Shown here: positions 16,455 to 48,119 of the stretch, in pieces
How the letters are laid out: every line of letters begins with the position of its first letter
Numbering within the stretch: the first letter of the stretch is position 1
Assembly: GCA_030698625.1 (NCBI GenBank)
Contig: JAUYMS010000048.1
Span: forward strand, 21,879 to 85,878
DNA from: Candidatus Omnitrophota bacterium
GTDB lineage: Bacteria; Omnitrophota; Omnitrophia; Omnitrophales; Aquincolibacteriaceae
Direction of reading: 5' to 3'
Length of the DNA stretch: 64,000 nt
Translations under genes and position numbers: made by a program
The notes under the pieces: model-generated
The model's input: only the letters and a program-made list of their open reading frames with translations
What the model was told of the DNA's origin: nothing
Databases searched by the model: none

Positions 16455-19400
16455 ATGAAAACAAAAAAACACGAAACCCAAAATCAGAACTTTCATCCGC
16501 TCCTGAAAACTACTGCGTGGATCATAGCGCTCGTTTTTCTCGTGGATACCGTTGCCTGGTCGGCGCCGGTGACGCCCGAGGCGAATATTCCCGCACCGAA
16601 CGTCTCAGCTTATCTTTACGATCTCCGGATTCCCGAAGCCATCGGTAAAATTGAAACGCGTTTTTTGCCGGCCGTCCCAGGGAAGGATACTCCCGTTATT
16701 ATTCACATCCAAGACGCGCACGCGCATCCGGAAGCCCAGCGAAATATCCAAGCGATCCTGGACCATCTCGGCAAGAACAACAAGATCGACAGGATTGCCG
16801 TAGAGGGTGCATCGGGAAAAATCGAGCCGGCCCTGCTTGAATTCTTCTCCGTTCCCAAAGTCAATGACGCCATGGCTGAGTACCTTACGGACATGGGGGA
16901 GTTGACCGGCACGGAACTTTATGCTCTTGAACATAAGGGGTCGGCCGCTTCGGTAAGCGGCGTCGAAAACGTCGATCTCTACCGCCGGAGTTTCTCCCTC
17001 TTTGAAGAGATCAAGTCCGAAAAAGAGAGCGTTGAAACGGCTCTGAGTTTCTACGGCCGCAAACTCGAGGAGCTGGAGATTCGGTACCTCGGAGAAGATT
17101 TGCGCCGATTCGTGGCACAGCGGAGGTTGTGGCAGGCAAAACAGGCAAGCGAGTCTCACGCCTACTTTAAGCTTATCGCCGAGTTTTCAGAGCGATACTT
17201 GGCCCTCAACTTTTCGGACCCGCGCATGCAGTTCACATGGCCGCATCTCGTGCGCATGGTCAAAACGGGCGAGATCGAAGCGGATCTCAAGCCGGAAGCT
17301 GCAGCCGGGGAGAGTTCGCAATTGGTTGTCGCTATCGCTCGGGCGTATCCCGATCGGAGTCCCATGAGAGATTTCCTTATCGGAGGGATTGAATCCCTGG
17401 GTTCCGAAGAAGGCCCTAAGGCGTGGTTGTCCCGCCAGAACGGCTTTGCCGACGTAAAAAACGTTCGCGAGTTTACGGAATTGCTCTATCGGGAATCCCT
17501 TAACAAGGATTTTAATCTCTTGAGTTATCCCCACCTGCTGAACCTTGCCGGTTTTCATATTTTGCGGGAGGAAATCGATGCCACGGCACTTTTTGCCGAG
17601 ATGGCCAAAATTGAAAAGCGTCTCGAAGAAACAGTGGTTCGCAGTGACGATGAGAAGATGATTCTGAGTCTCATCCATGATTTCGAACTCATCCAGAAGC
17701 TGCTTTCGCTTTCCATGACTCGCGACGACTACGAGGCCTATAAGACGAGAAAAGATGATCTTACGCCGCGTAGGCTGAGCGAGAGATTCCTTAAATGGAA
17801 CGTGTTACCGCAGACGTTTCCCGTACTCGAAGCAAAAGCAGTCGCGATGGCTGAAGAGTTTTATCTCCTTTCGCGTCGGCGCGACGAAACGCTCCTGGAA
17901 AACGCTTTGCGCCTTCCGGGGACCTCGCATCTCGTGCTCGTAGCCGGCGGTTTTCACAGCCAGGGTTTGCAGGCCTTAATGAAGGAGAAAGGAATTGCCC
18001 ACGCGGTCATCAGCCCGCGCATGACTCAGTTCGACAGCGATGGCCTCTATGAGAAGGTGATGCTCGGCGAGAACGCCAAGCTGGATCTGCTGCAGGCTAG
18101 AGGAACCGCGATCGTTAAGCGCCTCATGCTTCAGTTGTCGCAGGAATACAGAGCCTTGGGTCCTCTGCCGCGGGCCGAAGAGCAGGCGGTTCTGGCATTG
18201 CGCGCCATTCACAAAGGCGTCGAGGTTGCCAGAGCTCTTGGTATTTCTGAAAAGACATTGGCTGCAGAGTTAAGCCGGCAGATTACGCTCTCCAGCATTT
18301 TTAGCGGCACACGTTTTGGCGTCGAGTATGACGCGGCCCGAGACCGTGTTGTCTTCGGAGTTTGGAATGATCGGGGCCGCCTAACGCTTTTGGGTGAAGA
18401 TGCGGCCGTTACCGCACAACCTGCTGTATCCGATGCGGCTGCGTCGCCGAAACGAGTCGATGTTACGGCGTGGTATCTCGGGCCTGAGTCCACGCTTTCT
18501 GTCTCTTCGGGGTTTGTGGCAGCGGGCGAGATCTGGTCCAACCGCCGTACGTCGCGTTCCCGATCCGAACTTCGCGTGGAACTTGTCGCCCAAGAAAATC
18601 ACTGGGTCGGAAATTTCGTTAAGAACATCCTCAGAGTGGTGCGCGGGCGCGACAAAAACACGTATCAGCAGCTTATCACGGCCATTGACCGGGTTAATCG
18701 TCTCAAGCGTGAACTTCTCAATGACCGGGGTCCGGAGGGCCTTTGGGAGGTTCACAGTGAGGCCGATATCGGACCGCACCGCTACATCCTGAGAATCGAG
18801 AATATCGCGGAGCGTGTTTATAACGACCACTTGATCTATGATTTGCCCATCGCCCATCGCATCGCCTATGTGCTCGCGGTTTTTGACGCCAAGAATTTCC
18901 CCACACTGCACAAGCGAATCTACGATGTGGTTCGTGAGATCATCTACAAGCCTAACAGTGATGAGCTTGAACATAATCCCAGAGCCTATCGCAACCCGTC
19001 TTCCAAGGAAGCTGAGATTACGGCATCAGAGTACAGCCGCGTTGCCAATACGGTTTCGCTTGCCGAACATCAGGACACGATTGATCGGCACACGCTTCTC
19101 CAGTTTGCCCTCAACTGGATCGTATTCGACATTCCGCGCAGTCATCGCCTGGCCCTTAATAATGAGAGTTTTACTGCCGAGGGGCTCAAGGAACTCGACG
19201 TGCCCGGAAGCGGAAATATTCCTAAAATTGCCTTCATTACCGACTATCACGGCGCCACGCGTGTCGGGTCTCTTTTTGCCTTTCTTAGCGGAATTCGCAG
19301 CGATTACCGCAATGTGCAAAGCGTGGCAGATCTGGAAGCGAAAATTCTAAAACGATACGCACAACAGTTTCCGGGCAAGACGGCAGGCGAAATTATTGCT

Positions 19401-22400
19401 CAGATGAACATGCATGTCGTCGGAGCCGGAGACTATGTCGATCGCGGACCGTGGCCGGATCTGGGATACGAACTCAATAAGTTCTTCCGCGCTAACGGAA
19501 AACTTAAGTTCATCAACGGAAATCACGAGGTCTGGAAAGACTGGAATATTACCGGTGTGCACCTTCGAGTGCACGATGCGTTTCGTACCATCCTGGCCAG
19601 TGAAAAATTGGCAGAAAACCATATTAGCGAACACCTCAAAATCATAAGGCCGTTTGTCACCACCGTGGGGTGGGATGCTGTAAGGGATCAGGAGAAATTC
19701 ATAGAGCTGGAACGGCAATTAGCAGATCTGATGGCACGCTTCTTGGCAGAGGCAAAGAAAAACGGAGGTGTCCTGGATAATGAAACGATCGAAAGGTATG
19801 CCAATGTGGTGATTGATGCGGGAACTAACATGACGCATTCGCGTGAATATTGGTCACGGGAGTGGGGCGTTCACGGCAACTGGTTCGATACCCTGCTTGA
19901 TCGTTTGAATGCCCGCATGATCAACGAGGGCCGTGCGGCGGCCAATGACAGCATTAATGACAGCCTTCGCGATCGCTTGGCCGCGATTCTAGAGCCCGCA
20001 CCATTCGGAGAGTTGGATGCTGAGATTCGCGAGGGCCTCGAGGACGTTCGGGAACAGCTGTTGACCAATATCCGAAGCGGAGAGGGTCTCTTTACCCCGG
20101 TGGATTCTCTGATGTTTTCAGATACCGACGAAGTCCGCGCCCTTCTTCGTCGAATGAAAGAGCTCAAACGTGCCAACGAAGAAAAGCGCTTGCTGGGGCT
20201 CAGCCACGAACAAGTCAAGGTGCCGAGCCCCTTTGAGGAGACGGCAAAAGTGGCTCGGAGGTATCTGGATGAGACAAATAGGATTATCGGGTTCTTAAAT
20301 CGGGCCGTGAAAGAAGCAGAGATTCCGAGCTTTGAGGCAGAGCTGATCACGATGGAAAATATGCGCCATAACCCCGTGGTCCTCGAAACGGTGCAATGGG
20401 ATCTGGAGAATTTCAGGCAATTCTATGTTCACTCCCTCGGCATGGCGGTATCGCACGGCATCATCCCCTTTAAAGAGGGAACCACCGAGCTTAATGTCAG
20501 CTATAAGACCCGGGGCGGGCGCACCTTCGTAGGAGTTGCTGCGATCGATGCCATGCAAGTTGACATACGCCGGTTCTTTCAAAATATCGATAAGATCGAG
20601 GACACGGCTGAGTTCCGGCAGGAAATGGAAGACGCCCTCGGTCCCGCCTATGATATTTTGCAAGACTGGTACTCCGACCGACTCGGCATCCTCAAGGCGC
20701 CGGCGGTCTTACACTTTGCAGACATCGGCGGACCCACCAAATTTTACTTTTCCGACCCCACGGCTTACAGCCCCAGGAGATTTCAACCGAATGCGGGTTT
20801 TTTAATGTTTGGCCACGTCCCGATGTCAGAAATGAAAAAACGTGACCTTCCTTATCTCAACATGTCAACCCGATGGGAGTTGAGCGGATTCGTCAACGGA
20901 GATGACGGTATGTCCGAGGGGTATGACGGCCGCGGCTCGGTCGTTTTGATTTTCGACCGCGACGAGAATGGAGTGCTCGAGGGTTTCAGGCGATATGGTT
21001 TCAAGCGAACCTCTTTCTACATTATCAATAAGCTCGTGCCGCCGGAAGAGAAACTCCTCGCGGCGGCTGTGGCGGCCCTCAAAATAGCAAACGGAGAGAC
21101 CGAGGCGCCGGCCGATCAGGTTCGCGCCCGTGAACTGCAAGCGGAGATTGAAGAAAGGACGGAACGCATACGGGAATGGAAGGAAAGGGCCGAGCGTTTG
21201 GACCGAGACGGAGAAGAGATCGAAGATATTACGCTTTATAAGATTCCTCAAAAAACGGCGGACAGAATTCGCCCTTTCTTAAGCGGCGAGGGCCTGCTCA
21301 TGCATATGGTGGAGCAGAAACTGGAAGAGACCCGGAGAATTTATGGAGAGCTCTTAGAAACCGCTACTCAGTTCGGACGTGTTTGGAAGAAAGCCCATTA
21401 TAGGAAGAAGCTCAAAGCAACAAGCCGACAGCTTGCGAACTTTCGTATCACGACCGTCAAGAAGCTCCTCGATCGCGCCTCCAAGGCCTCCGGCCGGCTG
21501 CATTCGCAGGAAGTGCGGAGGCGCATCGACAAAGCGCTGTGGTACGCAAGGACTTGGCGCTATGCTCAATCCGAGAAGGCCGTTACCGCAGTTCTCAATA
21601 TCGTTCAGGGCCCGGAATTTGAATTGGGACCCAGCTCACAGCTTTTTGAGGATCTTGAGCGCGCGTATCTTATCCTCAGCAGGCATACCATGTCAGAGCC
21701 GGTTCTACTCCAACGCTCCGAGCTGCGGTCTGACCCTGCTGTTACAAGCACTGGTGAATCTGATGCTGAAGCTTTCAATGTCTATACCCCCGACAAAATT
21801 GTGCGCGGTATGGAGGAGGAGATCGGTGAGAAGCCGGTGCTCCTTGCCACCTTCTCAAAATACTTGAGGGCCATTGTGTCCCAGAGGACGGAAGGGGGCC
21901 GTACTGTGGCGATGCCTCCATTTTTCGTGATACCCGCCCATCTTTCCGAACGCATGCTGAGCAGCGGTCAGCCCTTCGACGAAATCACCAGAAGAAAGTT
22001 ATTGGAGAATCTCTTCGAGTTTAGCGAAAGAGGAACAGAAGCATTCGGTAAACCCGAATCACCGCTATTTCTTTCGATACGTGCAGCTGCACCGCGAATC
22101 GTGCCCGGCCAGTTTATTACTATCCTGAATGTCGGCATTAATGACGACACCTTTCCGGGTCTGGTTCAGCGCTTGGGAAGCCTTGAATTAGCCCAGAGCC
22201 GTTACTCGAAACTGATTCGCGACATTCTAATCGAAATCTATAATTATGAACGTGACGACATTAAGGAAAGTATGGATGAACTCCCGATCGAAAATTATGC
22301 GACAAAGGAGGAGTGGCGTTTAGCCGCACTGCGGAAGGCCTATCGAGATTTGCGCCAGGAAGAATTTCCGCAGGACGTTTACGAACAAGTGCGAATTATT

Positions 22401-25400
22401 ATGGATGGTATTTACAACCGCACACGATACACGTCAGCCGCTGCCGGAGCGCAGTTCCGAGGCGGTATTATGTTGCAACGCATGGTTTTCGGTATCGGAG
22501 AGAATTCTTACTCGGGCGAAATCGCCAGTCGGACATCAGAAGGGGACCGAATCATCCGGGGTAATATGGAGGCAGGCGTCCAAGGGGATGAAACAACGGG
22601 TGTCGTTCGGGTCGGTCAGGAATTCTTTCAGAGGTACCCGGAATTTACGAAAGCTATCGACGGTATTTTGACGGACGGTGAAAATTTTCTGCGCACCGCT
22701 GTTCAAATGGAGATTACCATCGAGAATAGCAAGGTCTATTTATTACAGCTGAAAGCGGCGGAGCGAACCAGTGATGCCGCGGCCGCCGTCATCATGGATT
22801 TGCTGGATCGAGGCGTCATTAATAGTGAGACGGCCTATGATATGGCTCAGAATGTCGACACGGATGCGCTGCGATTTGAAGAGGCGCTCGCGGGGACCGA
22901 TGCCCTGGTGAAGCTTGGCGGGGGTATTCACGTCTCACCGGGTGTTGCCGTTGGGCATCCGGTCATGACGAACGTAGGCGTGAATGAGAGCCGCCAGGGA
23001 GGAGTCCCCTACATCTTGGTAAAGCCCGAGATTCGTGCCCATGATCAGGAAGCCATTCAGGGTGCGAATGGCGATAAGGGTGCCGCGGCTATTGTGGCCC
23101 TCAATCAGATCGGAAATCATGCCGAGACCTTGGCGCTTATAGCGAAGATCCCCGCCGTGTTATCCGTACCCTTCGAGGAGATCGATTTACCACAGGGTAC
23201 ATTTTCGCTGCGTGGATCTGACGGTCAAGTGCATAGACTTCAGGAAACCAACCCGAATGACTTTATCTCGATTGATTCAGACGGCGCCATCTATTTAGGT
23301 AAGGCTGAAATTGTAAAGAGCCGCCGCAGCCTAAGTAAGCGTTCCGGTGATTTCCTTGCATGGAAAATGAAACTTGAGGGCAAGACGCCTGCCTTTGCCG
23401 TCAAAAGAGTGCCTTTCGGCTATGAAAGCTGGAGCACACCCTTCATCGAAGATGTGGTCAGTGAAAATGATTACTACCGCACGGTTCGTGACGGAGTGCG
23501 AGGCGATAAGAAGGTCTTTTTAATCGAACTTATTGATGTGGTCGAAGCCGAAGCAAAGCCGGATAAACAGAAAACAGAAAAGAAGGAACCTGAATATCGC
23601 ACTATTCCTGATTCGGTTATTATCGCGGCCGCTCAAGACGTGTTGGCTCGTGCCGACAGCATCGAGCAGTTCACTTTCTGGCTTTGGCGGCACTACGGTA
23701 AAATGGATCTTAATGCCTATCAGTTCGAAGAAAAAACGGAGAAGGGAAAAGAGATATTCTACGTGCCCTCTCACATTAAATACACAAACGAATCCGCCGC
23801 TCAAATTGCCTACATGCTGCGCGTCCTCAAGGGAAATCCTGAAAGGCTCGCGCAATCCATGTTTCATATGGTTGAGCGCCACAAGCCATGGAGCTATACC
23901 TTTAGGCGGGGGATCATTCCGCGCCTGTCGAGAGAGGATGCGTCCAAGTTCCTGGCTCTGGCGATGAACGAAGCTGTGAAACACGGGCAGAACCACATTG
24001 ATTTTATGATGCCCAGGCTCTTCGCGGAGCTTATCGAGAGTAACACCGAATTTGCGCTTGCCGTAATGCAAAAGGAATTTGGTCCCTTACAGCGCGGTTG
24101 GATGATGAATGGACTTTACGAGTTGTATGAACATCGTCGACTGCGGGAACGGACTATGGACTTTGATCTCCCTGCGGCGGAAAAATTAAAAGCGTTTCTG
24201 CTCGATAGTGTCGTGGATGCGGGAATCGAGTATCAGGTGGCGGAGAGGCATGAACACGGACCTCACGCCAGACGAGAAGTGACATGGACACATGACCCAC
24301 GCCTGCAGGACGAGATCGTTGCGTGGATTCGTACCCGAGAGAGGTCGGAATTGCGCGAGGCAGGGACCGCGATGCGGTCCGAGCTGCGCACCGGACCCGA
24401 TTCCGAGTATGTATCGAATGTCGTGTCGATATCGACAGCTGAGAATCTGTTGGATATCACGCCGGGCAGCATCAGTCAGCGATTTCCGGAATCAGACTAT
24501 GAGGCCCAAATCGATTGGAACCCCGGACTCATTCAATCAGACCGTGGTCTATCGCGGCTCACGATCATTCCGAAGACTGAAGGCAAAGCCAACCTTACCT
24601 ACGTCGTGAAGAGGGCCAACCCCATCAGGCGGGAGCTGGCGGCGCATTTCCAAGGTGAGGGCGATGTAGCCCAAGTTGCGTCTGATAGCGGGTTCGGCCC
24701 CGCCCTATTGCATCAAGAAGGCAACGTCATCATCGAAGAAAAATATCCGCCGGGGCATCACATCGCAGCTCGCGGTTTACTTCTTTCGCCCGTCGAATCA
24801 GCCGCCTTTGGCAGAAAGCTCGCCGGCGCACTTCACAGTATGATCACTCGGGGTCAGCTCGTTTACTACGGCGAAACACCTCAAACTCACATCATGATTC
24901 TGCCCACGAACAAAGACGGCCCCCGTATCCGCTTTTTGGACTGGAGCCATTCGCTTCCATTGCAGAATGACGCCGACCACAAAAATAAATTAGAGGCATT
25001 AAAACAATATGCCTACGTTATCAAAACCTTCTTGGCAAAACCGAGTAATAACATTTATGCATGGCGTAGTTTTGAAGCGACTTTCTTGAGTTTGGCGGAT
25101 ACGCTTGACATCGACTATTACGATGACCTTATCCACCAGGTTCGCAGCTACTATGCAAACAAGGAGACGAATCCGGATAAGGCATCTCGGGAATTATGGG
25201 GTGACTTTTTTTCGTATGCTGACGCGGCTCCGGACCTGGGCAGCGTTCGGACGACTATTGACCAGTCTGTGCCTGCAGAACGAGCTCCCGGAAAATTCGT
25301 TCAGAACCTACTGACATCGGTCAACATTGATTCGCAAGCCTTGCGCTCCGTCAAACTGATCTTGGAGCATGAGGAATATCTTGACGCGGAAATTGCGGAA

Positions 25401-37400: not shown

Positions 37401-40400
37401 AGGGGTGTTGCCAATGTCGCCCTTTATGCGGACTTCGGTTTCTTGGCTGAAGTGGCAGTAACCGTCAATCGCGAAGGGGCCGCCCTTGAAAAGGGCAGTG
37501 TCGTGATCGAGAGTATGTACACGCTGGAGCGTACGGACAAAGACCCGCCGGCAGGTAAGGCACCGTTTACGGTTGAGGAGACGACAACAAAGGGTCTGCA
37601 TGTTCGCTGGGAGGCGGCCGGTTTCTTTGACATGAAGGCAGCAAAAAAGCCTCCGCTCGATCTCCATCCCGATCTTTTAGCGAATTCCCGTTTGGGTAAG
37701 ACCTACAATGACTACCGAGTACTCGGCATAACGGGCGTAGATAAAAACGAATGGGCCCTTTCCGATGTGAAACAATTGAAGATCACCCTGAGCGGCGACA
37801 AGATTCCACAAGGGTTTTATCTTGTGGTTGCCAATACAGACCAGCCGGACGGGGTCGAATATAAGGGCCTTATCCGCCTCGCGATGCCCCAATCGATCGT
37901 GGGACAGAAGCTGGCCAAACCGACGACGCTTACCGTCGATTTTACCGCAAAGGGCCCGAAGCTCTTCCGGGACATTACGCCCGCGCGGGCGAATGCGCCG
38001 ATCGAAGCGCGCACGGTTGAGAACTTCGGTAAAGTGGGATGGGTGGCACTTCTTTTTAAGCCGGGGGACTTCGCCAAAGACCTGAAGCCCGAGGAGCACG
38101 TCGCCGACTTCAATGTTCACAGCATCGAAGTCGTGCGTTCGGAGCTGCGTAATTTAGAGAGGTTAAAGACAGAGGCAAAGGCCCTGCTCGAGCGCGCCAA
38201 GCCCTTCTACAACGAAAAGCTTGACGCAGCTATTGCCGAAATAGAGGCTGAGAATTTTACGCGTGCGAGCGACATTGTTGTTGAGGTCATTGGAATTGCA
38301 ATCGATAGGCATAACATGAAGCCCACGAGTGCCTTTGTGACGAGTCTGTGGAAGGTCCACTCCACACTCGAGCAAGCGGCGGATCTCAAGCGTTCGGAAC
38401 TACGGGTTGAATTAGCGGCGGATGAGGTGGCGACGGCCAACGGGTTGATCCGCCATCTTTCACCCAAGACGCCTCAGGCGGAGATTCCTAAGGATCACGT
38501 GCTTGTTGTGCTCGGTAATCCGCATGCGGATTATCCGGACTATGTGGCTGAGTTAGCGGAATATCTCGGCCCCACTAAGATTGTGATTGTCGGTAAAGGT
38601 GTCCGTGACGGCGAGGTCCCGGAGTGGAGAAGGATTCGCGACCGCATCGTAGACCTCAAGCCGGCGCTCGCCTCTAAGATCCTCGTGGATGAAAACGACG
38701 CCTCGATGCATACGGGTATGAATGTCACAACCGTTGCGAAGATCCTAAAAGACAACGGCATTACGAATCCTAATCTTGTGCTAACCCAAATTCCGACCGG
38801 TGTCCTGCTCTCGCGGCGTATCTTTGAAAAGCAGTGGGCCGAAAATGCGGCCCGAGCGGGCCTGAACCTGACCCCGAACTTTTTGACCTATGCGGTGGAC
38901 CGGAATTTCCGTCTCGCCGCTAACAAACCGTTAAGCAAACGTGCAGTATTCGCGGTGGAACATGCCCTGGGCCAAGTCGAACGTCTGCGCGACTGGCCGG
39001 CAAATGAAAACCCGCCTCTTGATGCGGTTGAAGGTGATGTCACGCCTGAAATTCTCAGTGCTTACGGCAGTCTGCAACGTGCACTCAAGCGCTCGGAGCT
39101 GCGTGATCTGGAACCCACGCGCGTTCTCGTCGCCGATGAACCGCAGGGCGGCGACATTGAGCCGCTGCGTGAAGTCGTGAATTTTTTTGCGGGAGACGCG
39201 GTTCTCATCGAAGGTGAAATCGAGGGCACCAGCAAGGTAGGTATCGGTGCTGATCACGATAAACTCAGAAAAGTTATTGAACAAGATAAGCCGGACGTCA
39301 TCCTGATTCGCTCCGGCGTTAAGAAAATCTTCAAGGACCCGGATTTCTTAGAATTCGCCGCGGCTAATGGCGTGCGCGCTATCATCCGCATGGGTGCGGG
39401 TATCGATAACGTTGATGATGTGATGGCCGCGGAACTCGGCATCGCTGTGATTCGTACGCATGGCAATGCAAACTCCGTGGCAAACGGGTTTTTGCGTCAG
39501 TTGCTTGCCGGTCTTGAGGCTGAAGACGGGCGGCTTGGCGAAAGCAGTGGGCCGGATCTGAGCGCCTCAGACCTCGGAGACATTTTTGACATTGATATTG
39601 ATGAGCTCGTCGCGGCAGAGGCCGAGGCCTCGAAGAATGCCGCCCGCGGTAAGACGCATCCGGATCAGGCAGGAAAAGTCTTCCACTCCATCTCCGCTGT
39701 GCGGGCCCGCGAACTACTTCAGAAGTTGGAGGGCCGTACCATCGGCCTCATGGGATTTCGTGCCGTGGCCTGGGCCGTGGCCGAAAAACTTAACGAAATC
39801 CGTACTCGCTTGAATATTGATTTTAAGATTGTCGCAACCTCTCCGACCCTCGATGGCAAGAATAAGAAAAAGGCGGCCGAGACCGCGGTCTTGCGTGAGG
39901 TCGCCGCTAAGTTTGGGGTGGAATATCCGGGCGAGGACGCGGTTTTGGCCGAATCCGATATCCTCTCGCTTCATATGTCCGCGGGTGACGAGCCTTATTT
40001 CACTAAGGAAATCCTCGAGAAAACAAAGGCCACGATTTGGATCAACACGGCAAGACAGGCGCTCATTGATGAAGACGATCCCGCATCGCTTAAGGCATTG
40101 AACAAGGCTTTCTGGGACGAATTTGTGGCGCGAGGGAACTTTTATTTCTCAGATGTGGATGCTCACGCGGCCTTTGAAGCTTTGCTGGCCGAGCATACCG
40201 GTCATCTTTTCCGCTCGCCGCATATCCTCGCCAGCACGGTGAACGCAGGTGAAGGGGTTAAGGCGCTGACGCTGCCCACGCTGAAAACCACGATCGAGCT
40301 GATGCGCGGCCTTGAGCAATCGACGCCTGACTTTGTCCTGGAGAACCTGAACGGTATATCTCTCGCTCCCAAAACCCCCGAGGTGCGCGGTCCTTTTGAT

Positions 40401-43400
40401 CCCGTCCTCGTGCAGAGCGACGGACAGACGACTTTTAGTTGGTCCCACTCGTTCCGAACCCTTGAGGCCTCGGCGATTCTCAATACGATTAACGGGTTAC
40501 CTGAGAAAAGCACGAAGAACGCTCAAGCCATGTCGCAGAAAGAAATGACGACGGTGGTTGAGTTCGACAGCGAACAACATCGCGGCTGGATTATTGATAT
40601 GAAGGTGGTCCGGGATTTCATTGCCGAACATGACCCGATGATTCGCCTCAGCCGCTGGCTCTATCAGATTACGCCGGAAGAAATTATTGTCTACGACTTG
40701 AGCGAGACGGAAATCACCACAAGTGAAGATAAAAATCTCCGCCGCTTTCTTGAAACATTACTTCACGAAATCCTCACGGCGTCGGCGATGCAGATGGCCG
40801 GAGAGAAGTCTGCGCTGACTTATGAGCTCGTACTCAATGCGATTAATAGAGAGCGAAGCGAAGATACGCGTTTCAGCCCTGATACCATTGAGTCCCTGAT
40901 GCGGGGTGAAATGATCTACAGCATTGACCGCAAGACGAGACGGATTGAACCTTCCGCCGGAACCGTTGAGTTAGGCCATCTTCCCGCTGTGTTGGCGATC
41001 CCCACGATGCAGGGTATTTATCTCAAGACGGCCTTTAGCCTGATCCACTCGCTTCACGAACTCGGTATTGACGGCGATAAAGACGACCCGGTCCTGGCGC
41101 TGCCCGATCCGCCGGCGGGACCGCTGCATCCGACGAAGCCGCATTTGGCCGCGGATGATGTCGTCATAAAAGATACGAGGAATCTTACGGCACGTTCCGA
41201 GCTTCGGGCGGCGGGTCTTGAGCGGCAACGCGAAAACAAGAGGCTGGCTACGGCCAAGCTGCTCTATCGTGATGTCTTGAAAGCCAATATCGCGCTCATG
41301 CGTGCCACCTCTGCGAAGTCGAAGGCTGCCGCCGAAAGCGAAGATGATGCCGAGGCAGCCTACCAACAGGTCGCCGCCGATCTCGCCGGTTTGCAAAAGG
41401 ACATTCTCAAGAGATGGGTGACCGCTAAGGACAAAACAGACAAGCCGTGGAAGCAAGAAGCCAAAGACAAGATCAAGCGTGCCCTTGAACTTATCGAAGG
41501 TTCCGGGGAAACGAAAAAGAATCCTATTGCCGCCAATGCCGCTTTGACTGCGGCGGTGACTCGTTTTCACAAAGAGTATGTCAACTTGCTAGCAGCGAAG
41601 TATAACCGGGTGCGGGATTATCAGATAAGCCACAAAGGCCGGTTTTCGTATGATCCGCGGAACCGGCAGTATGTGTTAATTCAGGGGGCCTATAAGATGC
41701 AGCAGGTAGTTGAAGGGCGCGAAGTCTCCATCATTTCTTTTGACGAAAGACGCTTTGATCTGTTGTGGGATGCCTTGGGCTCTCAATATCACACGATCGA
41801 CAGCGAACTAAACAACAATCGTGATACCGGGACGGCCATTGAAACGCTCGGTGAACTTGAGCAAACCCTTACGAGACTTAAACAGGATGAGAGGGATGCC
41901 TCGGCGGCCGCGGATGTTTCACGTCAGCTTACCGGGTTGGAAGAGGCGCTGAATTCGCAGTGGATTGTCGAGAAGGAACTCGCCCAGCTCGGCAGTGAAG
42001 CGGCCGCCTTACAGGTTGATCTCGGCGATTTCGGGCCGGCGCATACGACGGCGACTCAGACGAAGTCCTTGCTTGTGACCCGTCTTGGAGCCGTGAAAGC
42101 GATTATTGATAAAGTTGAAGACGGGCGCCTGCAGGAGATGCGCGATATGCATAAGGGGCGTAACCGAAACTATGACCGCAAGATTGAGAGTATGCAGCAG
42201 ACCCTGAAAAACGCTGTCTGGAGTGACGAGGAGCGTAAGATGGTTGTTGCCGCAGGCAGCCGCGCTTCCGCTTATGTGGCATTGAGTAATCCCGCAGCGG
42301 TGATCATCGACCAATTGAAGGACCGTTCCGAACCTGATCTCGAAGGCCTGAGCGGTCTCCTGCAGGGCGCGAAGCGGTCGCTCAGTGAGATGGAGAAAGC
42401 CTATAGGAGAAGTGATGCTCAGGGAGTTGCTCAGCAAAAGGCGAATGCCGTCAGGTATCTTAAGTTAGCGCGCGATATCGTTGAAGAGTCGGATCGCAAT
42501 GGGCGGTTTATGGTGGATTATCGCACCCGCTTGAAAAAGGAAAGTCTGGCGGGGAAAAGTGAAGAGCAGTTGCGTCAGGCTGCCTTCAACTACGCCCTTG
42601 ACGAATTTAGTGCCCGTGAAGGAATCGGGAAGCAATCCAAACAATTTCCTGCTTGGTGGTATCTTTTTTACCGGAACGCCTTTGTTTCCCGGCGGCCGGA
42701 GGAAAAAGAGGCACGCGAACGCGGTGACGTGAACCCCCGGTTTCAGGCACTGACGACTTTGAAACAGATCCTCAAAGCCGACACCGTGGAAAACACCCTC
42801 AAACTTAGGGCAGTTAAGAAGGATAGCCCGCTGCATACCTTTTTCACACAGGGGAGTATCAGCCCAAAGAAGAGCGTGATGAATCTGGAGGCTGAACAGA
42901 AAACAAAGTTTCTCGAAGCCCTGGCAGAGCAGCATGGAATTCAAAGGGCCGATATTCCGAATGTCCCCGCGGCGTACCGCCCGCGCACCCGCTCCGAGCT
43001 TCGGGAAACCGTGTTGGCGGCCACCGCCTCTATTCAAAGTCTGGATGCGCTGGATCGCTTGCTCGTCCTTGTGGACGGATTCGGAGAATTCTCCGAAGTC
43101 ATTTCCGAAGCGGCCACAGGTACTGAGAAAGAATTAATACAGGCCTTTCGTGCAAACAACCTGGCTGAGGTCAAAGATTCTATAAGTGCCGTGAGCGGTT
43201 GGAAAATCGGTACCCGCAATTCCTGGTTGGGTGTGAGACGTGCTATTCGCAACAGACTTCGCAAACTGATTGAACCCAGGATTGAAAGAACCATCGATAT
43301 CATTAACCAAATTGAGGATGAAGCGGCCTATTACCTTGCAGGGCAGATCTTAATCGGTGCGACTGAATTTGGCGAGTATCCGGAGCTTGAAGGCCTGCGG

Positions 43401-46400
43401 GATTATGATGCTCTTATGGCATTGGAAATGGTTCATCCGGAGATGAAACTTTGGATTTTGGATGAGGCAGTGAAGGTATCGAATGCGCTACAAATAAAGG
43501 CCTTCGAGTTCGAACATAACCACATGATGGCGCGATTCGACGAAACGGAACGGGTGATGCAATCACTTCAAAAAATAAAGGATCGCAAGGCAATGGAACT
43601 GGCGCTTTGGATTGTGATCGGGAAAGTTCCCGAACCTTTGGGCGAGGCCTACGGCAAAGGATTAGGTGTTTTAGAAGAGGCGCTTGGGGTCGAAGGATTG
43701 GACGGGGTCAGAATCCTGTTGCGGCGGCAGAATCGAAACTTCATTCGAAGCGTGATGCAGCTGGCGCTCACTCAAATTTCACAGCGCGAAGAAGCGGCAG
43801 CTTACCGGGCTCAGGTAGAGGCGCTGCCGGATAGCGATCCGATGAAAGCCCTGCTGTTGGAGGCATTTGACGCGCTCGATGCAAATCTGCAAAGATTCCT
43901 AAAGCAGTTGGACCGCTCCGAACTGCGTGCTGACGAAGCCGATAAGGTCGTCATCCACCCGGTGATTCGGGAGCATATTGCAGCGTGGCTGATCGAGTAC
44001 CTTAAGCCCGAGCGGCTGCCGCCGGGACGGGAGTTCAGCGCGGACACGCTGGATGCCGTGATTCTCGAGCCCGACAAGGCACCGGATATCCTCAATGCTG
44101 CAGGAGCACAAATCAAAAAGAAGCATAAAGCTGGTCTGGTTAGCGAGCTCAAGGTGCAGCTGCGTGTGGCCTCGGCCTTTGCTTCTGCCAAAGAAGCGGG
44201 CGTTGTGGACCAGACGACTGCGGAAGATACCCACAGGATGACCGTCATTGCAAAATTTGCTGATCGCACGGAGGCTTCCAGAAAGGACTTTGCGGCGAAA
44301 CTTGCCGTGAGTGTGAAGCAGCAAGTCGAGCAATTGTCCGACAGCCAACTGCTCGCAATTTCGATGGACCTGGAATTACTTCGCGAGCAGGCAGTGCGGG
44401 CAGCCGCGGCCGCTCCCCAGAAACTCCGGTTTCAACCGCCGTTCTTTGTGGCCATGGGCTTTGGCCCCTCAGCTCTCAGGCAGGCCTTTCGCACAAGCCT
44501 GATTCAGCGCGGCGTGAGTACGACCGGCGCAGACGATTTCTTGAATACCCTTGAAGACAAAAAGCATGTGACGCCGGTCTGGGACGCGGCTGATGTTATC
44601 GGCAAGGCGGCTGCACAGGTTACGCTTCCGGGCGGCATTACGGTAAACATTCTGGACGAAAAAGACATTCATCTCATCAACTCTCTGCTAGCGGCCGGCG
44701 GGCGGACCGAACAGCTTCGCGTCTGGCTCGTCAACGGCCGTCTCATTATGGCGCTCTTCGGTGAAGTGACGCATGAAACGCTTGCGCTTGATGAGCTGGA
44801 TGACGACACCCAACTTGGCGTCGGCATTCGCACCTATACGTCATTCACAGCGGCGACGCCGCTCGCCCTGATCGGCGAGGCCACCCGCGATCACGGAACG
44901 CTCGAGATCTACCGGCCGGTGATTCAGTTGAAGGCTTCCGAGCAGAGCCAAACAGTCAAGACCACGCTAGCCAAGGAAAATCCTGAGTTTTTCAAAGCGT
45001 GGACGAATGCCGAACGTGAGAAGTGGTCCGAACAACTCAGTGACCTCGACCGCTTTGCGGCAGACATGGAGGCCATGACCCGTTTCCGCGGTGTTAGCGA
45101 CCTTATCTCCATGATATTCAGCCAGTCGGCAAGCCAGCAGTTCGGTGACCTTGCCGAGATTTTTCAGAAACTGGCGTCGGTTGAAAGCACGGCACAGCAG
45201 CTCCCGTTTATCCCCGACACCCTCTTCGATTTCATCGGGAGATTCGACCCGTTTCAGGGTTTATATGCCAAGGTACACGAACTCGCACTTGCAAGTTCCG
45301 AAGACGCCTATCGCCTGCTGCTTCTGCAGTGGGCCCAGACGAAAAACGAAACCCGGATTACCGTACCCGTGGCCAGGCTGCGGGCAGAGCTGGAACTTGA
45401 GCTTCTCGAAGGGCTCTTGAGTGGCAAGCCGGAGGATCTCGCAGCGAATCTCGAAAAACTTCTGACGACGGATCCTCAGCAGCAACTGTTGAATCTTTTT
45501 GGGGAGCTCAATGAAGCGGCCAAACAGCACAAGGAGGCTCCCGAAGGTTTCCTTGCCGAACTCGAACAGGCGAAAGGGATGCTGAGATCTATATTGAAGT
45601 TGGACGAAGGCCGCCTCGAGCTGCCGGCTGCCGATCGGCCGGTAGAATCTGGTTTGGACGCGCTGCGCGATGAACGCGATCGCATGGGAATGGTAATAAG
45701 GATTGCGGACATTGACGATGCGGCCTTTCCTCTCGGCGAAAAAGTACGCATTGTCTCCGATGTGACAGGCGCTTTTATTCAGGAAGCGCGTTACGATGAC
45801 TCTCTCATTAAAGAATTGATCCTAAATAATCAGGATGCCCGCTATTCGGCGGCCCAAAACGAAGAGGCGCACAGAGTCGTCTCGGACCTCATCTCAAAAA
45901 CGTACAATGAGCAGTTCCGGCCGGCGATCGCCGAGGGGCGCCTTGCGGATGCCGAAAAGGCCTGGGCGCGTTTCGTGCGTCTGACTACCGGCGGCTACAT
46001 CGTTTCGATCACGGCAGATAACCACAAATTCGATTATGTCGTTCCTACGGCAACCGAAGCAGATCTTAACGAACTCGTAAAGGGCCATACCGTAAAATCG
46101 GAATTTTTCCAAGCGCTCATAGACCACAAGGCAAACATCGGTGCGGCCGAGAATGCCCGCACTTCCATTACCTTCGTGACACGCACGGCCGAGCGCTTTA
46201 CCGTAGCCCTTATGCAGCGTGCCGATATTCAACAGGCATTACGTGAAGCCGGAATCGACGAGGTCCGCATTATCGGCACCGTGATCAAAACCGACAAGGA
46301 GGCCCTCGGAATCGACGAATACGATATCGTGCGGGCGCCGGTAGAAAAAGAGGATGTGTACGTATTCCCGAGTCTAGGCGAGACCTATTTCGTGGACGAC

Positions 46401-47366
46401 AAATCCGCGGCGAAATACGAAGGCCGCTTCGAGAAACGAATCATTAATGTAGAAGCCGTGAACCGCTCCGAGCTGCGGACCGCTACGGCTGAAGTCGCAT
46501 TGCAGACTCCGTGGGAGACTGAATTTGCCGATGCATTGCGTGCGATCGAGAACGTGTTGTGGGGCCGTTACGAGATTACGCGCGAAGTCACGGTGATTGC
46601 CGCACGCCTCATTTTGCCGATTATTCCGCAGGACGTGCTGAATGCCGGGCGCGTGCGTGAATTCCTCGAGGCCGATCTGTTCGGGCCGCAGTCGCGTGCC
46701 CTCGCGGCCGTCACCGGTATCGATACCTTCTCGGATCAGGCGCAGGCGAATCTGGCGCAAGCGGCGATCAATATCCGTCTTCTGGATCGAGTGCCCGAGA
46801 ATTCCCGCTACCTTGTCGGGATCGAAAAGATTCTTGCGGACCAACCGGGTCTTTACCTTCGTGCGATTGTGGTGGACGGGGACGAAGCGCAGGTGCGAGC
46901 CGCGGGCGATTTGAATCGTGCCTTCACATATGGCTACCCGCATTTGGCTAATCGGTTCCGGATTGATGTGGTCTCTGAAAGGAGATTGAGTGCCGCTGTC
47001 CAGGAAACGATAGAAGAGACGCATAAGAATGTCCGGGCAACCGAGGCGATTTCCACAGAGGAGCTTCTGGATCGCGCCACCCTTTCGAGTGTGCGCGAGG
47101 AGTGGCTAGAGCGTGTTCTTGTTCAGGCTAAGTGGCGGGTTTATGACAATGTCGAAGAAACGCGTTTGGGCGAGGAGCTTGTCGGGATTCAACTTGAAGC
47201 CCTCCTAGCGGCCGACCACCTTGATGCCGAATTGCTCAAACAACTTGAAGGTCGGCAAAAAGAGCGTCATATTACTCGTCAGGATCTTTATAATGCCGTG
47301 GATGAGGTTGCCGCGAATCTTTGGGAAGCCTATCTCGGCGATCGTAAGTTTTACGAAGCAGCCTAA
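16455..47366 (+). CDS. Giant 10,303-aa modular membrane-anchored mega-protein built of enzyme-like domains separated by RSELR motifs
   Basis: 30,912 nt with no stop codon in one frame. Consistent codon structure throughout, and only short spurious ORFs on the opposite strand. N-terminal signal/TM anchor. Domains are recognisable by direct motif alignment (see domain features). Confidence 0.9.
   Translation: [10303 protein letters not shown]
16506..16562 (+). other. N-terminal signal peptide / signal-anchor helix of the giant protein
   Basis: [21 protein letters not shown]: positive n-region, hydrophobic core, AWS-AP possible signal peptidase site. Confidence 0.6.
16700..18010 (+). other. 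TraB/GumN/TIKI-like domain (module 1)
   Basis: [15 protein letters not shown] resembles the TraB GTAHV block. C-terminal [13 protein letters not shown] resembles the TraB-family GxGH block. Confidence 0.35.
19200..19900 (+). other. Calcineurin-like (PPP-type) metallophosphoesterase domain (module 2)
   Basis: Ordered motifs TDYHG (GDxHG-like), GDYVDRG (GDxxDRG) and GNHE in canonical spacing. Confidence 0.6.
21850..23300 (+). other. PEP synthase / pyruvate-phosphate-dikinase-like ATP-grasp nucleotide-binding domain plus phosphohistidine (PEP-utilizers mobile) domain; no C-terminal PEP/pyruvate TIM barrel (module 3)
   Basis: [29 protein letters not shown] aligns to PPDK [52 protein letters not shown]...[11 protein letters not shown] aligns to VQAMVFGN.G.TSGTGV.FTRNP...LYMLQ.[22 protein letters not shown] aligns to TSHAAVVARGWGKCCV, so the phospho-His is retained. 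[14 protein letters not shown] aligns to GDWLSLDGSTGEV. No GLCRTEHMF-type barrel follows. Confidence 0.7.
24345..24389 (+). repeat. 45-nt direct repeat copy A (encodes [15 protein letters not shown])
   Basis: tcggaattgcgcgaggcagggaccgcgatgcggtccgagctgcgc is 43/45 identical to copy B at 26424-26468, with a 41-nt perfect core. Confidence 0.9.
24650..26220 (+). other. Two protein-kinase-like (APH/RIO/Kdo-kinase-like) motif blocks within module 4
   Basis: [32 protein letters not shown] and [32 protein letters not shown] resemble the HGDLHPGNILV...IDW catalytic-loop / DFG-like arrangement. Weak. Confidence 0.25.
26424..26468 (+). repeat. 45-nt direct repeat copy B (encodes [15 protein letters not shown])
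   Basis: tccgaattgcgcgaggcagggaccgcgatgcggtccgagctgcgt, 2079 nt downstream of copy A in the same frame. Confidence 0.9.
27300..27960 (+). other. Glu/Leu/Phe/Val dehydrogenase-like domain, NAD(P)-binding part (module 5)
   Basis: [17 protein letters not shown] aligns to GDH [32 protein letters not shown]...[23 protein letters not shown] aligns to KTFVVQGFGNVG...VGESDGSIWNPDGID. The upstream GGxKGG catalytic-Lys motif is not evident. Confidence 0.6.
29100..29760 (+). other. M50 (site-2-protease)-like transmembrane HExxH metalloprotease-like block (module 6, N-terminal part)
   Basis: Hydrophobic helix [18 protein letters not shown] directly followed by HERGH (nt 29343-29357). Downstream AAAGPAAS (cf. 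M50 AGPxxN) and a further helix ending AFLDRL (cf. LDG). 3-4 TM helices. Confidence 0.4.
29900..30800 (+). other. Enolase C-terminal TIM-barrel domain (module 6, C-terminal part); no enolase N-terminal capping domain
   Basis: Colinear match to enolase: GGVHT/[153 protein letters not shown]. All barrel catalytic and metal residues are conserved. The first ~140 aa of enolase are absent. Confidence 0.75.
31760..32700 (+). other. Glucosamine-6-phosphate deaminase (NagB)-like domain (module 7, N-terminal half)
   Basis: IQIPTGSTP (LPTGGTP), FNLDEYVGL (FNMDEYVGL), [24 protein letters not shown] ([25 protein letters not shown]), [24 protein letters not shown]. Confidence 0.8.
32920..33500 (+). other. 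LmbE/PIG-L-like deacetylase domain (module 7, C-terminal half); with the NagB part this gives a NagB-II-type architecture
   Basis: [13 protein letters not shown] (AHPDDE zinc motif) and DPHGAHGLG (HxxH) about 150 aa later. Confidence 0.6.
38460..39080 (+). other. DUF218 (YdcF/SanA/ElyC)-like domain (module 12)
   Basis: [35 protein letters not shown]...[19 protein letters not shown] resembles DUF218 VLGg....R...a..l...g....iivsGG...le..StnT.eNa. Confidence 0.35.
39250..40260 (+). other. D-isomer-specific 2-hydroxyacid dehydrogenase (PGDH/D-LDH-like) domain (module 13)
   Basis: [32 protein letters not shown] (substrate-binding domain signature), [18 protein letters not shown] (NAD-binding GxGxxG-like), [14 protein letters not shown] (Arg/Glu of catalytic triad), RSPHILAST (catalytic His). 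Confidence 0.75.
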
Positions 47367-47380
47367 AAAGAAAGTACTCA

Positions 47381-48115
47381 ATGCCGCGTCGCAGCATCCT
47401 GGTCCTCGATTCTCCGGATACCCACTGGACTTCTCTTATTCAAGAATATTTTCAGGATACTTCTTCGCAGGTCGATTGCTTTGATGCAGCTGCCCCGGCG
47501 GGTCAGGCCCTGGATAAAACCGGTCACGATCTAGCCTTTATAAACCCCAAACTTCTCAATCTTGCCCTGACCCAAAAACTCCTTTCTGTACGACAGACCC
47601 GGCCGGATTTCCGTATCTTTGGTTTGGGTAAAGCCGCTCAAGCAAATAAAATTCCTTACAGCGCTCTCTTTGAAGAGGAGATCTCCTTGTTTGACTTTAG
47701 CAAGAAGGTGGTCGAGGCTGTGCCGCTTCCCGAGGCGATTCAGGTCGTGGTGGTTGACGATGAGGAGGCTATAGCCGCCATGGTTTGTGATTACTTGAAA
47801 GGGCGATCGAATCCGGTTTTTCAGGTGCGTTACGCAAAGAACGGTGAAGAGGGGATGCGGCACTTGACTGAAAAGCAGCCCGATGTGCTTATACTCGACA
47901 TCAAGATGCCCGTCAAAGACGGGCGTGAGGTGTATCGCGAAATTCAGGCGAAGAAATGGAATTTCCCGGTGGTCGTTTTCTTTGATGCGGTTTCAGCTCA
48001 CGAAATGCTTGAGATTCGAAAGGCCGGTAACCCCGTAGTCCTCGAAAAGGGTTCACGCGAAAGCACCATGCCTGAGATGATGGTCCTCATTAAAAAACTC
48101 GCCTTCTTCGGGTAA
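47381..48115 (+). CDS. Response regulator with tandem receiver domains (first degenerate), no output domain
   Basis: C-terminal half VVVVDDEEAIA...DVLILDIKMPVKDG...PVVVFF is a canonical REC with an acceptor Asp. N-terminal half ILVLDSPD...HDLAFINPKL is REC-like with Asp->Asn at the acceptor position. Starts 14 nt after the giant-ORF stop. Confidence 0.75.
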   Translation: MPRRSILVLDSPDTHWTSLIQEYFQDTSSQVDCFDAAAPAGQALDKTGHDLAFINPKLLNLALTQKLLSVRQTRPDFRIFGLGKAAQANKIPYSALFEEEISLFDFSKKVVEAVPLPEAIQVVVVDDEEAIAAMVCDYLKGRSNPVFQVRYAKNGEEGMRHLTEKQPDVLILDIKMPVKDGREVYREIQAKKWNFPVVVFFDAVSAHEMLEIRKAGNPVVLEKGSRESTMPEMMVLIKKLAFFG

Positions 48116-48119
48116 CCGC

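Follow-up and report, generated by a model that had tools for sequence, protein, structure and literature searches.

RSELR, a probable recognition motif at the module junctions of a giant Omnitrophota protein and possible processing site of a bacterial polyprotein

Introduction

Do bacterial giant proteins of 10,000 to >100,000 amino acids (aa) act as single molecules, or are they cut into pieces? The question is explicitly open, and West-Roberts et al. (bioRxiv 10.1101/2023.11.21.568195) write that a lack of cleavage-point information blocked their structural analysis. The "multi-enzyme metabolic cluster" is a defined class of Omnitrophota giant proteins (bioRxiv 10.64898/2026.06.07.730766). 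Here we describe a pentapeptide, RSELR, that recurs along the product of one giant gene on a 64,000-nucleotide (nt) stretch of DNA from a Candidatus Omnitrophota bacterium (assembly GCA_030698625.1, contig JAUYMS010000048.1, positions 21,879 to 85,878 of the forward strand). We refer to this whole stretch as the window, and to the protein as the giant; unless another contig is named, nucleotide coordinates are those of the window. Omnitrophota are ultrasmall bacteria that probably depend on hosts.

A polyprotein with a cis-encoded protease is a principle already known from viruses and from the MARTX toxins of Vibrio, whose linkers show a loose Leu-small preference and are not known to carry an exact pentapeptide. 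The RgpA, Kgp, and HagA polyproteins of Porphyromonas gingivalis are processed at Arg or Lys by gingipains, which are C25 cysteine proteases encoded in the same polypeptide, and the products are adhesin and protease domains. We know of no fixed pentapeptide in gingipain-processed polyproteins.

Our searches of the literature on polyproteins and Omnitrophota found no description of the motif, a search for RSELR itself brought up nothing but chance strings and the R package varSelRF, and one for the motif variants gave nothing relevant. Two Omnitrophota giant-protein papers and a survey of the phylum make no mention of the motif, of linkers, or of junctions, and the strings "cleav," "motif," "linker," "processing," and "junction" have no occurrence in the 2026 preprint (bioRxiv 10.64898/2026.06.07.730766).

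Results

RSELR recurs 18 times in a single giant reading frame

An open reading frame (ORF) scan of the 64-kb window gave a single giant ORF of 10,303 codons. RSELR occurs 18 times in its product, where 0.025 copies would be expected from the protein's own composition. A first-pass annotation of the window had listed RSELR at 18 aa positions, and our recount returned every one of them unchanged. The sites below come from a motif scan, joined by homology for sites 8, 9, and 18 and by a domain scan for sites 7 and 14.

16455..47366, plus strand: giant ORF, with a signal anchor, an N-terminal TIKI-like domain, ~17 RSELR-separated modules, and a C-terminal module of ~300 aa
18561..18575, plus strand: RSELR 1, aa 703, 205 aa past the GGFH box
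21714..21728, plus strand: RSELR 2, aa 1754
24342..24356, plus strand: RSELR 3, aa 2630, first of doublet 1
24375..24389, plus strand: RSELR 4, aa 2641, second of doublet 1
26421..26435, plus strand: RSELR 5, aa 3323, first of doublet 2
26454..26468, plus strand: RSELR 6, aa 3334, second of doublet 2
29052..29066, plus strand: RSELR 7, aa 4200, 13 aa past the end of the HEAT repeats
31725..31739, plus strand: RSELR 8, aa 5091, start of module 7
33783..33797, plus strand: RSELR 9, aa 5777, at the natural C terminus of the NagB + PIG-L module and followed by a hydrophobic segment
35145..35159, plus strand: RSELR 10, aa 6231
36018..36032, plus strand: RSELR 11, aa 6522
38136..38150, plus strand: RSELR 12, aa 7228
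38391..38405, plus strand: RSELR 13, aa 7313
39090..39104, plus strand: RSELR 14, aa 7546, before the 2-hydroxyacid-dehydrogenase-like module
41193..41207, plus strand: RSELR 15, aa 8247
42990..43004, plus strand: RSELR 16, aa 8846
43914..43928, plus strand: RSELR 17, aa 9154
46464..46478, plus strand: RSELR 18, aa 10004, before the C-terminal module

All 18 copies share one frame, and the other five frames of the 64-kb window contain none. When the pattern was relaxed to RSEL.,.SELR, RS.LR, R.ELR, RSE.R, or [RK]SE[LIVM][RK], each version returned the same 18 sites, so RSELR has no near-misses. The remaining 24 ORFs in the window, 9,872 aa in total, are without the broader pattern R[SA]ExR, of which 0.40 copies would be expected.

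We compared the 30 nt on each side of the 18 sites; pairwise nucleotide identity was 0.27 on the upstream side and 0.29 on the downstream side, whereas the 15-nt core reached 0.77. The codons vary synonymously and the flanking DNA is unrelated between sites, which agrees with the earlier claim that selection acts on the peptide. RSELR is thus conserved as a peptide and not as DNA, the sole exception being a 41-nt repeat that spans the two doublets (described below); a DNA or RNA element is excluded by the synonymous variants and the random flanks. Self-BLAST revealed no internal paralogy in the giant, so the repetition of RSELR is not the product of tandem duplication. As a separate observation, the Ser codons of the 18 motifs are all TCN, compared with 39% AGY among Ser codons elsewhere in the ORF (p about 1e-4), and CTC is missing among the motif Leu codons. 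TCN-only Ser is in keeping with a residue at motif position 2 that has switched between Ser (TCN) and Ala (GCN) in evolution.

The motif marks the boundaries of exchangeable modules

Homology to a second long protein, P0002, switches on and off at the motifs. Residues 5091-5782 of the giant are 53% identical to residues 910-1586 of P0002, with RSELR at the start and end of the stretch in both proteins, and identity rises from 12% ahead of the first motif to 54% between the two and falls to 9% past the second; RSELR therefore marks true module boundaries. The last 300 aa of the giant match the C-terminal modules of P0002 and P0003, and the hidden Markov model (HMM) envelope starts exactly on RSEVR/RSEAR. 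The two modules concerned are as follows.

31725..33797, plus strand: module 7, NagB-like + PIG-L-like, matching free-standing proteins of ~650 aa
46464..47363, plus strand: C-terminal module of ~300 aa, with homologous modules at the C termini of P0002 and P0003; the protein ends in ..FYEAA

With module 7 plus 30 aa on either side as the query, we searched 1.84 billion representative sequences with HMMER. Free-standing homologues, 620-730 aa long, match the inter-motif stretch from one end to the other; in P0041 (660 aa), for example, residues 5-657 align with query positions 33-714, and the motifs lie at query positions 31-35 and 717-721. Embedded copies are found in the long proteins P0002, P0039 (6,766 aa, with 13 motifs of which 10 are RSELR), P0040, P0042, P0044, and P0047. 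The free-standing homologues terminate 1-4 aa past the box AEVF..EF[LT], and at the same spot in the giant and in P0002, P0039, P0040, P0044, and P0047, where the module 7 counterparts are motif-bounded, the motif begins (junction spellings ..EFTGA-RSELR, ..EFTG-RSELR, ..EFLG-RSELR, and ..EFVG-RSEIR). The motif thus occupies the position that would hold the stop codon of a separate gene. A RAE[EDQ]R box near the C terminus of the free-standing homologues was considered as punctuation and rejected, as it is an internal conserved box.

At the other end of module 7, the natural N terminus of NagB lies ~7 aa downstream of the preceding RSELR. The first-pass annotation had described this module as a complete NagB-II-type unit; the motif-to-motif unit is borne out, although it consists of two domains, NagB and PIG-L. 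It had also placed the dehydrogenase module right after RSELR 14, which holds to within ~15-20 aa, the distance downstream at which the natural N terminus of the dehydrogenase lies. The broader proposal of a conserved junction that joins concatenated modules is strongly supported by the P0002 boundaries and the free-standing module 7 ends. When the giant was scanned unsplit, no Pfam domain spanned a motif.

The modules also move between genes. In the positional orthologue on contig L083 (ENA ERZ505514 NODE_11, 20935-27869), the gene that follows dnaX-recR encodes 4,766 aa, with RSELR at aa 711 and then sequence unrelated to the giant; the module 7 homologue of ERZ505514 lies in a different gene, 6 kb away. 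RecR of L083 is 72.6% identical to that of the window, compared with only 37% for the N-terminal domain, and by this comparison the N-terminal domain and the module content evolve much faster than the adjacent housekeeping genes.

The motif lies in flexible linkers

Across 309 sites, the 10 residues on each side of the motif are enriched in S, P, A, T, E, and Q and depleted in W, Y, H, C, F, and M, and indels adjoin the motif in alignments. We modeled one junction, that of the first RSELR, with AlphaFold2 (AF2). In the model of aa 1-780, residues 703-707 (RSELR) fall within a 75-aa coil, and the N-terminal domain is confidently predicted in the same model.

18378..18602, plus strand: predicted disordered linker, aa 642-716, holding the first RSELR (AF2 coil, predicted local distance difference test [pLDDT] 23-29)

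Judged by flank composition, by this junction, and by the lack of Pfam overlap, the motif lies in flexible, linker-like sequence. Inter-motif spacings have a median of 295 aa, and 29 of 249 are below 60 aa and form doublets. A sortase- or exosortase-type sorting signal was rejected: such a signal is a single C-terminal motif with a transmembrane helix and a basic tail behind it, whereas the 18 copies are internal and multiple, and only the one at aa 5777 is followed by a hydrophobic segment.

The two doublets of the giant, both reading RSELR-EAGTAM-RSELR, are spanned by an exact direct repeat of 41 nt, GAATTGCGCGAGGCAGGGACCGCGATGCGGTCCGAGCTGCG, whose copies bracket module 4. The pair has the appearance either of a cassette recently inserted or duplicated at a junction or of a branch point in the assembly.

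24348..24388, plus strand: 41-nt direct repeat, copy 1, within doublet 1; Logan contig L001 ends inside it at 24377
26427..26467, plus strand: 41-nt direct repeat, copy 2, within doublet 2

The motif is a family trait with lineage-specific spelling and a second class

Using the first 1,800 aa of the giant as the query, we retrieved 38 proteins, 1,000-3,150 aa long; those that carry names all come from Candidatus Omnitrophota (or Omnitrophica). They resemble the giant over the first ~550-600 residues only and then continue into other enzymes (PEPCK, UDP-glucose dehydrogenase, 2-oxoacid oxidoreductase, GNAT, PlsC, and others). These homologues each hold several copies of RSELR, RSEVR, RAEVR, RSEAR, RSEMR, or RSETR, with 86 R[SA]ExR sites in all against about 4.6 expected. 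The comparison of orthologues suggested earlier comes out in favor of the motif and widens it: relatives carry RSELR, RSEVR, RAEVR, RSEAR, or RSEMR at junctions. A consensus over 104 sites reads R-[S 85/A 19]-E-[L 37, V 28, A 12, M 8, T 7, I 6]-R, with unconserved flanks. The family motif R-[SA]-E-x-R recurs in hundreds of long Omnitrophota proteins from unrelated samples; its three charged residues are invariant over hundreds of sites in many genomes, and position 4 drifts by lineage. By sequence, RSELR is this organism's fixed version of the family consensus R-[S/A]-E-[L/V/A/M/T/I]-R.

When a single genome per species was scanned, at least 527 relatives of the N-terminal domain emerged. In the best 80 loci, N-domain ORFs contain 216 motifs against 9.3 expected, with up to 16 in ~3,900 aa, and ordinary neighboring ORFs carry the motif at background level, so the motif is a specific feature of the long proteins. 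Seventy-nine of the 80 loci belong to Omnitrophota or to unclassified "uncultured bacterium" metagenome-assembled genomes, and the remaining one is titled Planctomycetia. The first motif follows 66-250 aa past the GGFH box of the N-domain in 49 of 52 proteins with the R-type motif, and only one motif in these 52 proteins falls inside the N-domain.

Motif spelling is linked to the genome. With the window excluded, a fraction of 0.246 of the site pairs from one genome shared their exact 5-mer, compared with 0.130 ± 0.009 after shuffling, and none of 2000 shuffles reached 0.246. The source organism of the window is the extreme of this uniformity (18 of 18 RSELR). By these spellings, the exact pentapeptide is homogenized within a genome and differs between genomes. 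About a third of the loci are without any R[SA]ExR, and sampled paralogues from the same genome all agree in this; the motif class is identical in every sampled paralogue of each multi-locus genome. Many of the R[SA]ExR-free loci carry a second class, [AG]-x-S-L-G (A-type), which takes the place of R[SA]ExR at the corresponding positions, with up to 13 copies per protein and 27-fold enrichment, and AQSLG reaches 239-fold over expectation. In 14 of 15 A-type proteins the first copy likewise comes directly behind the N-terminal domain. Carriers of AQSLG, ASSLG, and GASLG include L011, L015, L018, L019, L042, L058, L062, P0004, P0011, P0031, and P0038.

Two further observations concern the ends of these ORFs. 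At L043 (9469-9473) and L054 (16924-16928), a motif-bearing ORF without the N-domain starts in-frame directly past the TAA/TAG stop of the N-domain ORF, and at L009 and L073 such ORFs overlap the N-domain ORF in another frame; they could be separate genes, read-through, or sequencing errors. The C termini of complete family proteins (n = 73) read -AA in 21 cases, -SA in 11, -QA in 4, and -RA in 3, and -AA makes up 2.8% of control ORF ends. Three proteins end three residues past a motif (RAEVRKAA*, RAEIRKAA*, and AQSLGQAA*). These -AA-type endings may be a C-terminal recognition signal. The giant itself ends in ..FYEAA (47349-47363).

The N-terminal domain is a distant, superfamily-level relative of TIKI proteins

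Every motif-bearing carrier of module 7 has the N-terminal domain (aa 1 to about 610), and this domain is the only element common to motif-bearing proteins whose N terminus could be examined.

16500..16556, plus strand: N-terminal hydrophobic helix, aa 16-34, followed by ..VAWS/AP (hydropathy; AF2 helix 15-36; alignment)
16632..18074, plus strand: N-terminal domain, aa ~60-540, TIKI/TraB/ChaN/erythromycin-esterase fold

The hydrophobic segment is signal-peptide-like or an anchor and is conserved across the family alignment. The domain that follows is ~550 aa long in the family and has an alpha/beta core with a parallel sheet, split by a helical insertion of ~300 aa (aa 173-490); the AF2 model has a pLDDT of 84.7. 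Residues D87, H89, Q95, E117, G169, Y176, R476, G498-G-F-H501, P521, and Y532 are invariant in 19 sequences. In the site-specific endopeptidase RRSP, a member of the TIKI family, the catalytic 2His/2Glu set is E3900, H3902, E3930, and H4030, and in Bcr135 the catalytic pair is H85/E113 (PMC6254334). The His-to-Glu spacing of 28 residues in our domain (H89-E117) equals that of RRSP and Bcr135, and D87-x-H89, E117, and H501 reproduce the 2His/2Glu pattern, with the Asp D87 in place of the first Glu. Features shared with the TIKI/TraB/PrgY/GumN-Ere-ChaN superfamily are the His after strand 1, Arg476, and the second G-x-x-H (GGFH501), whereas the helical insertion that splits the core and the sub-threshold sequence similarity set the domain apart.

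Pfam searches with 19 members of the domain gave weak matches to Cofac_haem_bdg (Tiki superfamily) in 3 of 19 (best E = 0.014) and a sub-threshold match to Erythro_esteras in 1 of 19, and none scored above the cut-off for PF01963, PF05139, or PF04187. The domain is therefore a distant, superfamily-level relative that lies outside the described families. Foldseek returned no significant match to it, probably owing to the insertion that splits the core.

Other modules of the giant and its neighborhood

The Pfam/NCBIfam scans gave many different families in single copies, none of them dominating by copy number (Metallophos, PPDK-like, ELFV_dehydrog, HEAT, Enolase_C/N, Glucosamine_iso, PIG-L, and 2-Hacid_dh). 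HEAT repeats accompany the Glu/Leu-dehydrogenase-like domain.

19224..19550, plus strand: metallophosphoesterase-like domain, module 2 (Pfam)
21906..23363, plus strand: pyruvate,phosphate-dikinase-like region, module 3 (below the family cut-off)
27699..28295, plus strand: Glu/Leu/Phe/Val-dehydrogenase-like domain, module 5 (Pfam)
29232..29744, plus strand: M50-like membrane segment with HERGH (HExxH, aa 4297) and FLD; weak Peptidase_M50 resemblance, conserved in P0003
29940..31490, plus strand: enolase-like domains in permuted order, module 6, C-terminal barrel first and N-domain second
39357..40079, plus strand: D-2-hydroxyacid/phosphoglycerate-dehydrogenase-like domains, module 13 (Pfam/NCBIfam)

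The first-pass annotation had suggested incubating RSELR-containing peptides with the embedded M50-like domain, and had missed the conserved N-terminal TIKI-like domain, the candidate shared across the family. This segment (aa ~4260-4430) has HERGH adjoining hydrophobic segments (WWHERGHYW) and FLD downstream, and Peptidase_M50 (PF02163) is its top Pfam match at a sub-threshold score (E = 0.096, 12.5 bits against a cut-off of 27.2). Among the compared proteins it is present in the giant and P0003 alone. Being only weakly detectable and missing from most motif-bearing relatives, it makes a poor general protease candidate. No other peptidase family was found in the giant by the Pfam/NCBIfam scans.

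In the enolase-like module the C-terminal TIM barrel precedes the N-terminal domain, and the module scores 208.8 bits against an NCBIfam enolase cut-off of 300 bits. A scan by hydropathy alone gave 4-6 hydrophobic segments besides the N-terminal helix. One transmembrane (TM)-like segment lies directly after RSELR 9 (33792-33848, aa 5780-5798); in P0021 and P0033 a hydrophobic stretch stands soon after the first motif, and in P0001 upstream of it. The free-standing NagB + PIG-L homologues P0048 and P0056 begin with typical signal peptides, which would fit an extracytoplasmic module 7 and an exported polyprotein. Searches for homologues of module 4 and of modules 14-17 gave no matches, and a scan of metagenome contigs yielded no close relative of module 7.

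The giant gene is chromosomal and is flanked by dnaX-recR on one side and a response-regulator gene on the other. Downstream of it (47381-50470) lie genes for a response-regulator receiver, a PHP domain protein, and an S9/S15-like hydrolase. These downstream families recur as internal modules in homologous long proteins (PF00072 in P0009 and P0010, PF02811 in P0036), which suggests that genes can lie inside or outside the polyprotein depending on lineage. The Logan contigs L001 and L082, from run SRR13727534, match the window base for base across the first 2,641 codons of the ORF and across its 3' portion from position 37381 onward; the organism was detected in Logan only in that run.

Discussion

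We are highly confident that RSELR is a dedicated recognition motif at module junctions. Its uniform spelling within a genome, the assignment of each genome to one motif class, and the existence of the second class, [AG]xSLG, imply a recognition partner. Placement in linkers, selection at the peptide level, genome-linked spelling, and two classes together form the pattern of a protease recognition site, and on balance we lean, by a narrow preference over the opposite, toward RSELR being cleaved as the site-specific processing site of a bacterial polyprotein. Self-cleavage by a Ser nucleophile was rejected on the grounds that Ala replaces Ser in 18% of sites. The best candidate for the cleaving enzyme is the N-terminal TIKI-like domain, being the common denominator, with its catalytic residues kept and the first site immediately after it; we offer this assignment tentatively, as possible rather than probable.

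On this explanation, a short linear motif would act as punctuation that separates independently folding and independently inherited units of an Omnitrophota polyprotein. A family member begins with a signal peptide or anchor and the ~550-aa hydrolase domain of the TIKI/TraB/erythromycin-esterase fold, reaches its first motif 66-250 aa past the GGFH box, and continues as a series of modules that varies from protein to protein and mostly resembles enzymes of central metabolism, with a motif after each module and often a last motif before a C-terminal module of ~300 aa. A site-specific endopeptidase, for which the N-terminal domain is the candidate and which may act in cis or in trans, would then cut at the motifs and mature the giant into about 17-19 individual proteins, much as viral polyproteins and MARTX toxins are processed.

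Several observations weigh against this explanation, whose mature termini and cleavage products are predicted from sequence. A signal-peptide-like N terminus would export modules of the NAD/ATP enzyme type. In the AF2 model of aa 1-780 the first RSELR was left disordered and did not dock into the active site of the N-domain. A search for specificity-determining positions between R-type and [AG]xSLG-type N-domains found conservative differences only, which speaks against the N-domain as the reader, since such positions are expected if the domain reads the motif directly. The TIKI superfamily also holds esterases (Ere) and a haem binder (ChaN), so the fold is no proof of protease activity. About a quarter of N-domain proteins have neither motif, and we found no third motif common to them; the junctions of P0003 are degenerate (RFE.., KSESR) at homologous positions; and some motif-rich ORFs are without an N-domain of their own, so that any cleavage there must be in trans.

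The case for a dedicated linker motif would fit equally well if RSELR were recognized and left uncut, as a docking or hand-off site in the linker for a chaperone, a secretion or membrane-insertion factor that passes a 10-kaa chain through one segment at a time, or a scaffold partner, the giant being a tethered multi-enzyme assembly. The signal peptides and scattered TM segments of the family suit this idea, as does the 2026 preprint's interpretation of such proteins as membrane-anchored assemblies; the N-domain's lack of specificity-determining positions would also be accommodated, and the proteins that end 3 aa past a motif (..RAEVRKAA*, ..AQSLGQAA*) look as though the motif were a C-terminal tag of the upstream module. 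However, binding motifs rarely need exact free-standing ends or a copy for every module, including those of 85 aa, and the doublets 8-40 aa apart resemble the spacer peptides of processed polyproteins. The modules equal free-standing enzymes that work untethered elsewhere, and a hydrolase-fold domain with intact catalytic residues accompanies the motif. We regard docking without cleavage as unlikely, yet as a serious contender. We also hold it doubtful that the site is cut by another protease, either the HExxH/M50-like domain of module 6 or an enzyme encoded elsewhere (Arg-specific, or of the PDZ type that processes C termini), with the N-terminal domain serving instead as an esterase, a cell-envelope hydrolase, or an anchor. 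The HERGH in its hydrophobic segment, the top if sub-threshold M50 match, and conservation in P0003 are points in its favor, and so are the genome-level nature of the motif class, the lack of covariation between N-domain and motif class, and the motifs in ORFs that lack the N-domain. The -AA/-SA ends, far commoner in the family than in controls (21/73 -AA against 2.8%), are reminiscent of what we take to be signals read by tail-specific or PDZ proteases. Set against this, the M50-like module is confined to the giant and P0003 among the compared proteins, the motifs of P0003 are degenerate, and the giant contains no further detectable peptidase family.

Two further explanations were weighed. 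The motif could be mainly a by-product of module shuffling, with junctions serving as recombination microhomology and the peptide tolerated in linkers; the 41-nt repeat brackets module 4 as an insertion-made duplication would, modules do move between genes (ERZ505514), and all 18 Ser codons are TCN where 39% AGY is found elsewhere. Yet apart from that repeat the 15-nt cores differ synonymously amid unrelated flanks, and a degenerate core of five codons is too short for homologous recombination. The invariant charged residues and the lineage-wise drift of position 4 denote selection on the peptide, and the TCN-only Ser is explained by toggling between S and A (TCN to GCN and back). We consider shuffling as the main cause very improbable. 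A compositional accident, or an artefact of assembly or gene calling, is refuted: a Logan contig does break at the 41-nt repeat, but 18 sites stand against 0.025 expected, the window's remaining frames and ORFs hold no copy, independent contigs agree with it base for base, and the motif recurs in hundreds of proteins from unrelated samples.

A recognized junction motif supplies candidate cut points that can be read from sequence, and with them a first concrete and testable answer on the cleavage of giant proteins. Giant ORFs become divisible at the motif for structure prediction and annotation, and metaproteomes can be searched for the predicted termini. If cleavage is true, the polyprotein strategy of viruses would have a counterpart on a cellular chromosome, with metabolic enzymes as its units; a substrate class would be assigned to a new branch of the TIKI superfamily; and giant genes may grow as complete genes become joined to them, each set off by a standard separator. 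RSExR and AxSLG are orthogonal separators and, together with the enzyme or enzymes cognate to them, could serve as new specific protease/site pairs. In its widest form, which we put forward as speculative and rather less than probable, the proposal is that Omnitrophota enzymes are largely made as membrane-targeted polyproteins, matured in the manner of viruses by a new clade of TIKI-fold endopeptidases at each N terminus that cut lineage-specific pentapeptides at ancestral stop-codon positions, letting genes fuse into giant ORFs and swap between them.

The giant resembles the "multi-enzyme metabolic cluster" proteins in its phylum, its length of at least 10 kaa, and the many metabolic Pfam families tiling one polypeptide, as well as in its signal peptide and scattered TM helices; the papers on Omnitrophota giant proteins cover domain content and topology only, without the punctuation motif, the second class, or the shared TIKI-like N-domain. 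With the Vibrio MARTX toxins it shares the form of a giant bacterial protein with exchangeable cassettes and unstructured linkers. MARTX effectors are released by an internal cis-encoded cysteine protease domain, and the effector RRSP is a TIKI-family endopeptidase (PMC6254334). The TIKI domain there is cargo that cuts host Ras and not the processing enzyme, whereas here it is the candidate processing enzyme, and neither RTX repeats nor a C80 cysteine protease domain gave a Pfam match anywhere in the giant, which places it outside the MARTX group. The viral polyproteins processed by picornavirus 3C, potyvirus NIa/TEV, and coronavirus Mpro likewise encode many functional units in one ORF and share with the giant a short, strict recognition peptide in flexible linkers, a cis-encoded hydrolase, spacer peptides, and lineage-specific spelling. 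They differ in that the giant is a gene of a cellular chromosome whose units are homologues of metabolic enzymes and whose cleavage we infer, and in that the viral proteases have a chymotrypsin or papain fold, compared with the TIKI/Ere fold of the candidate protease here.

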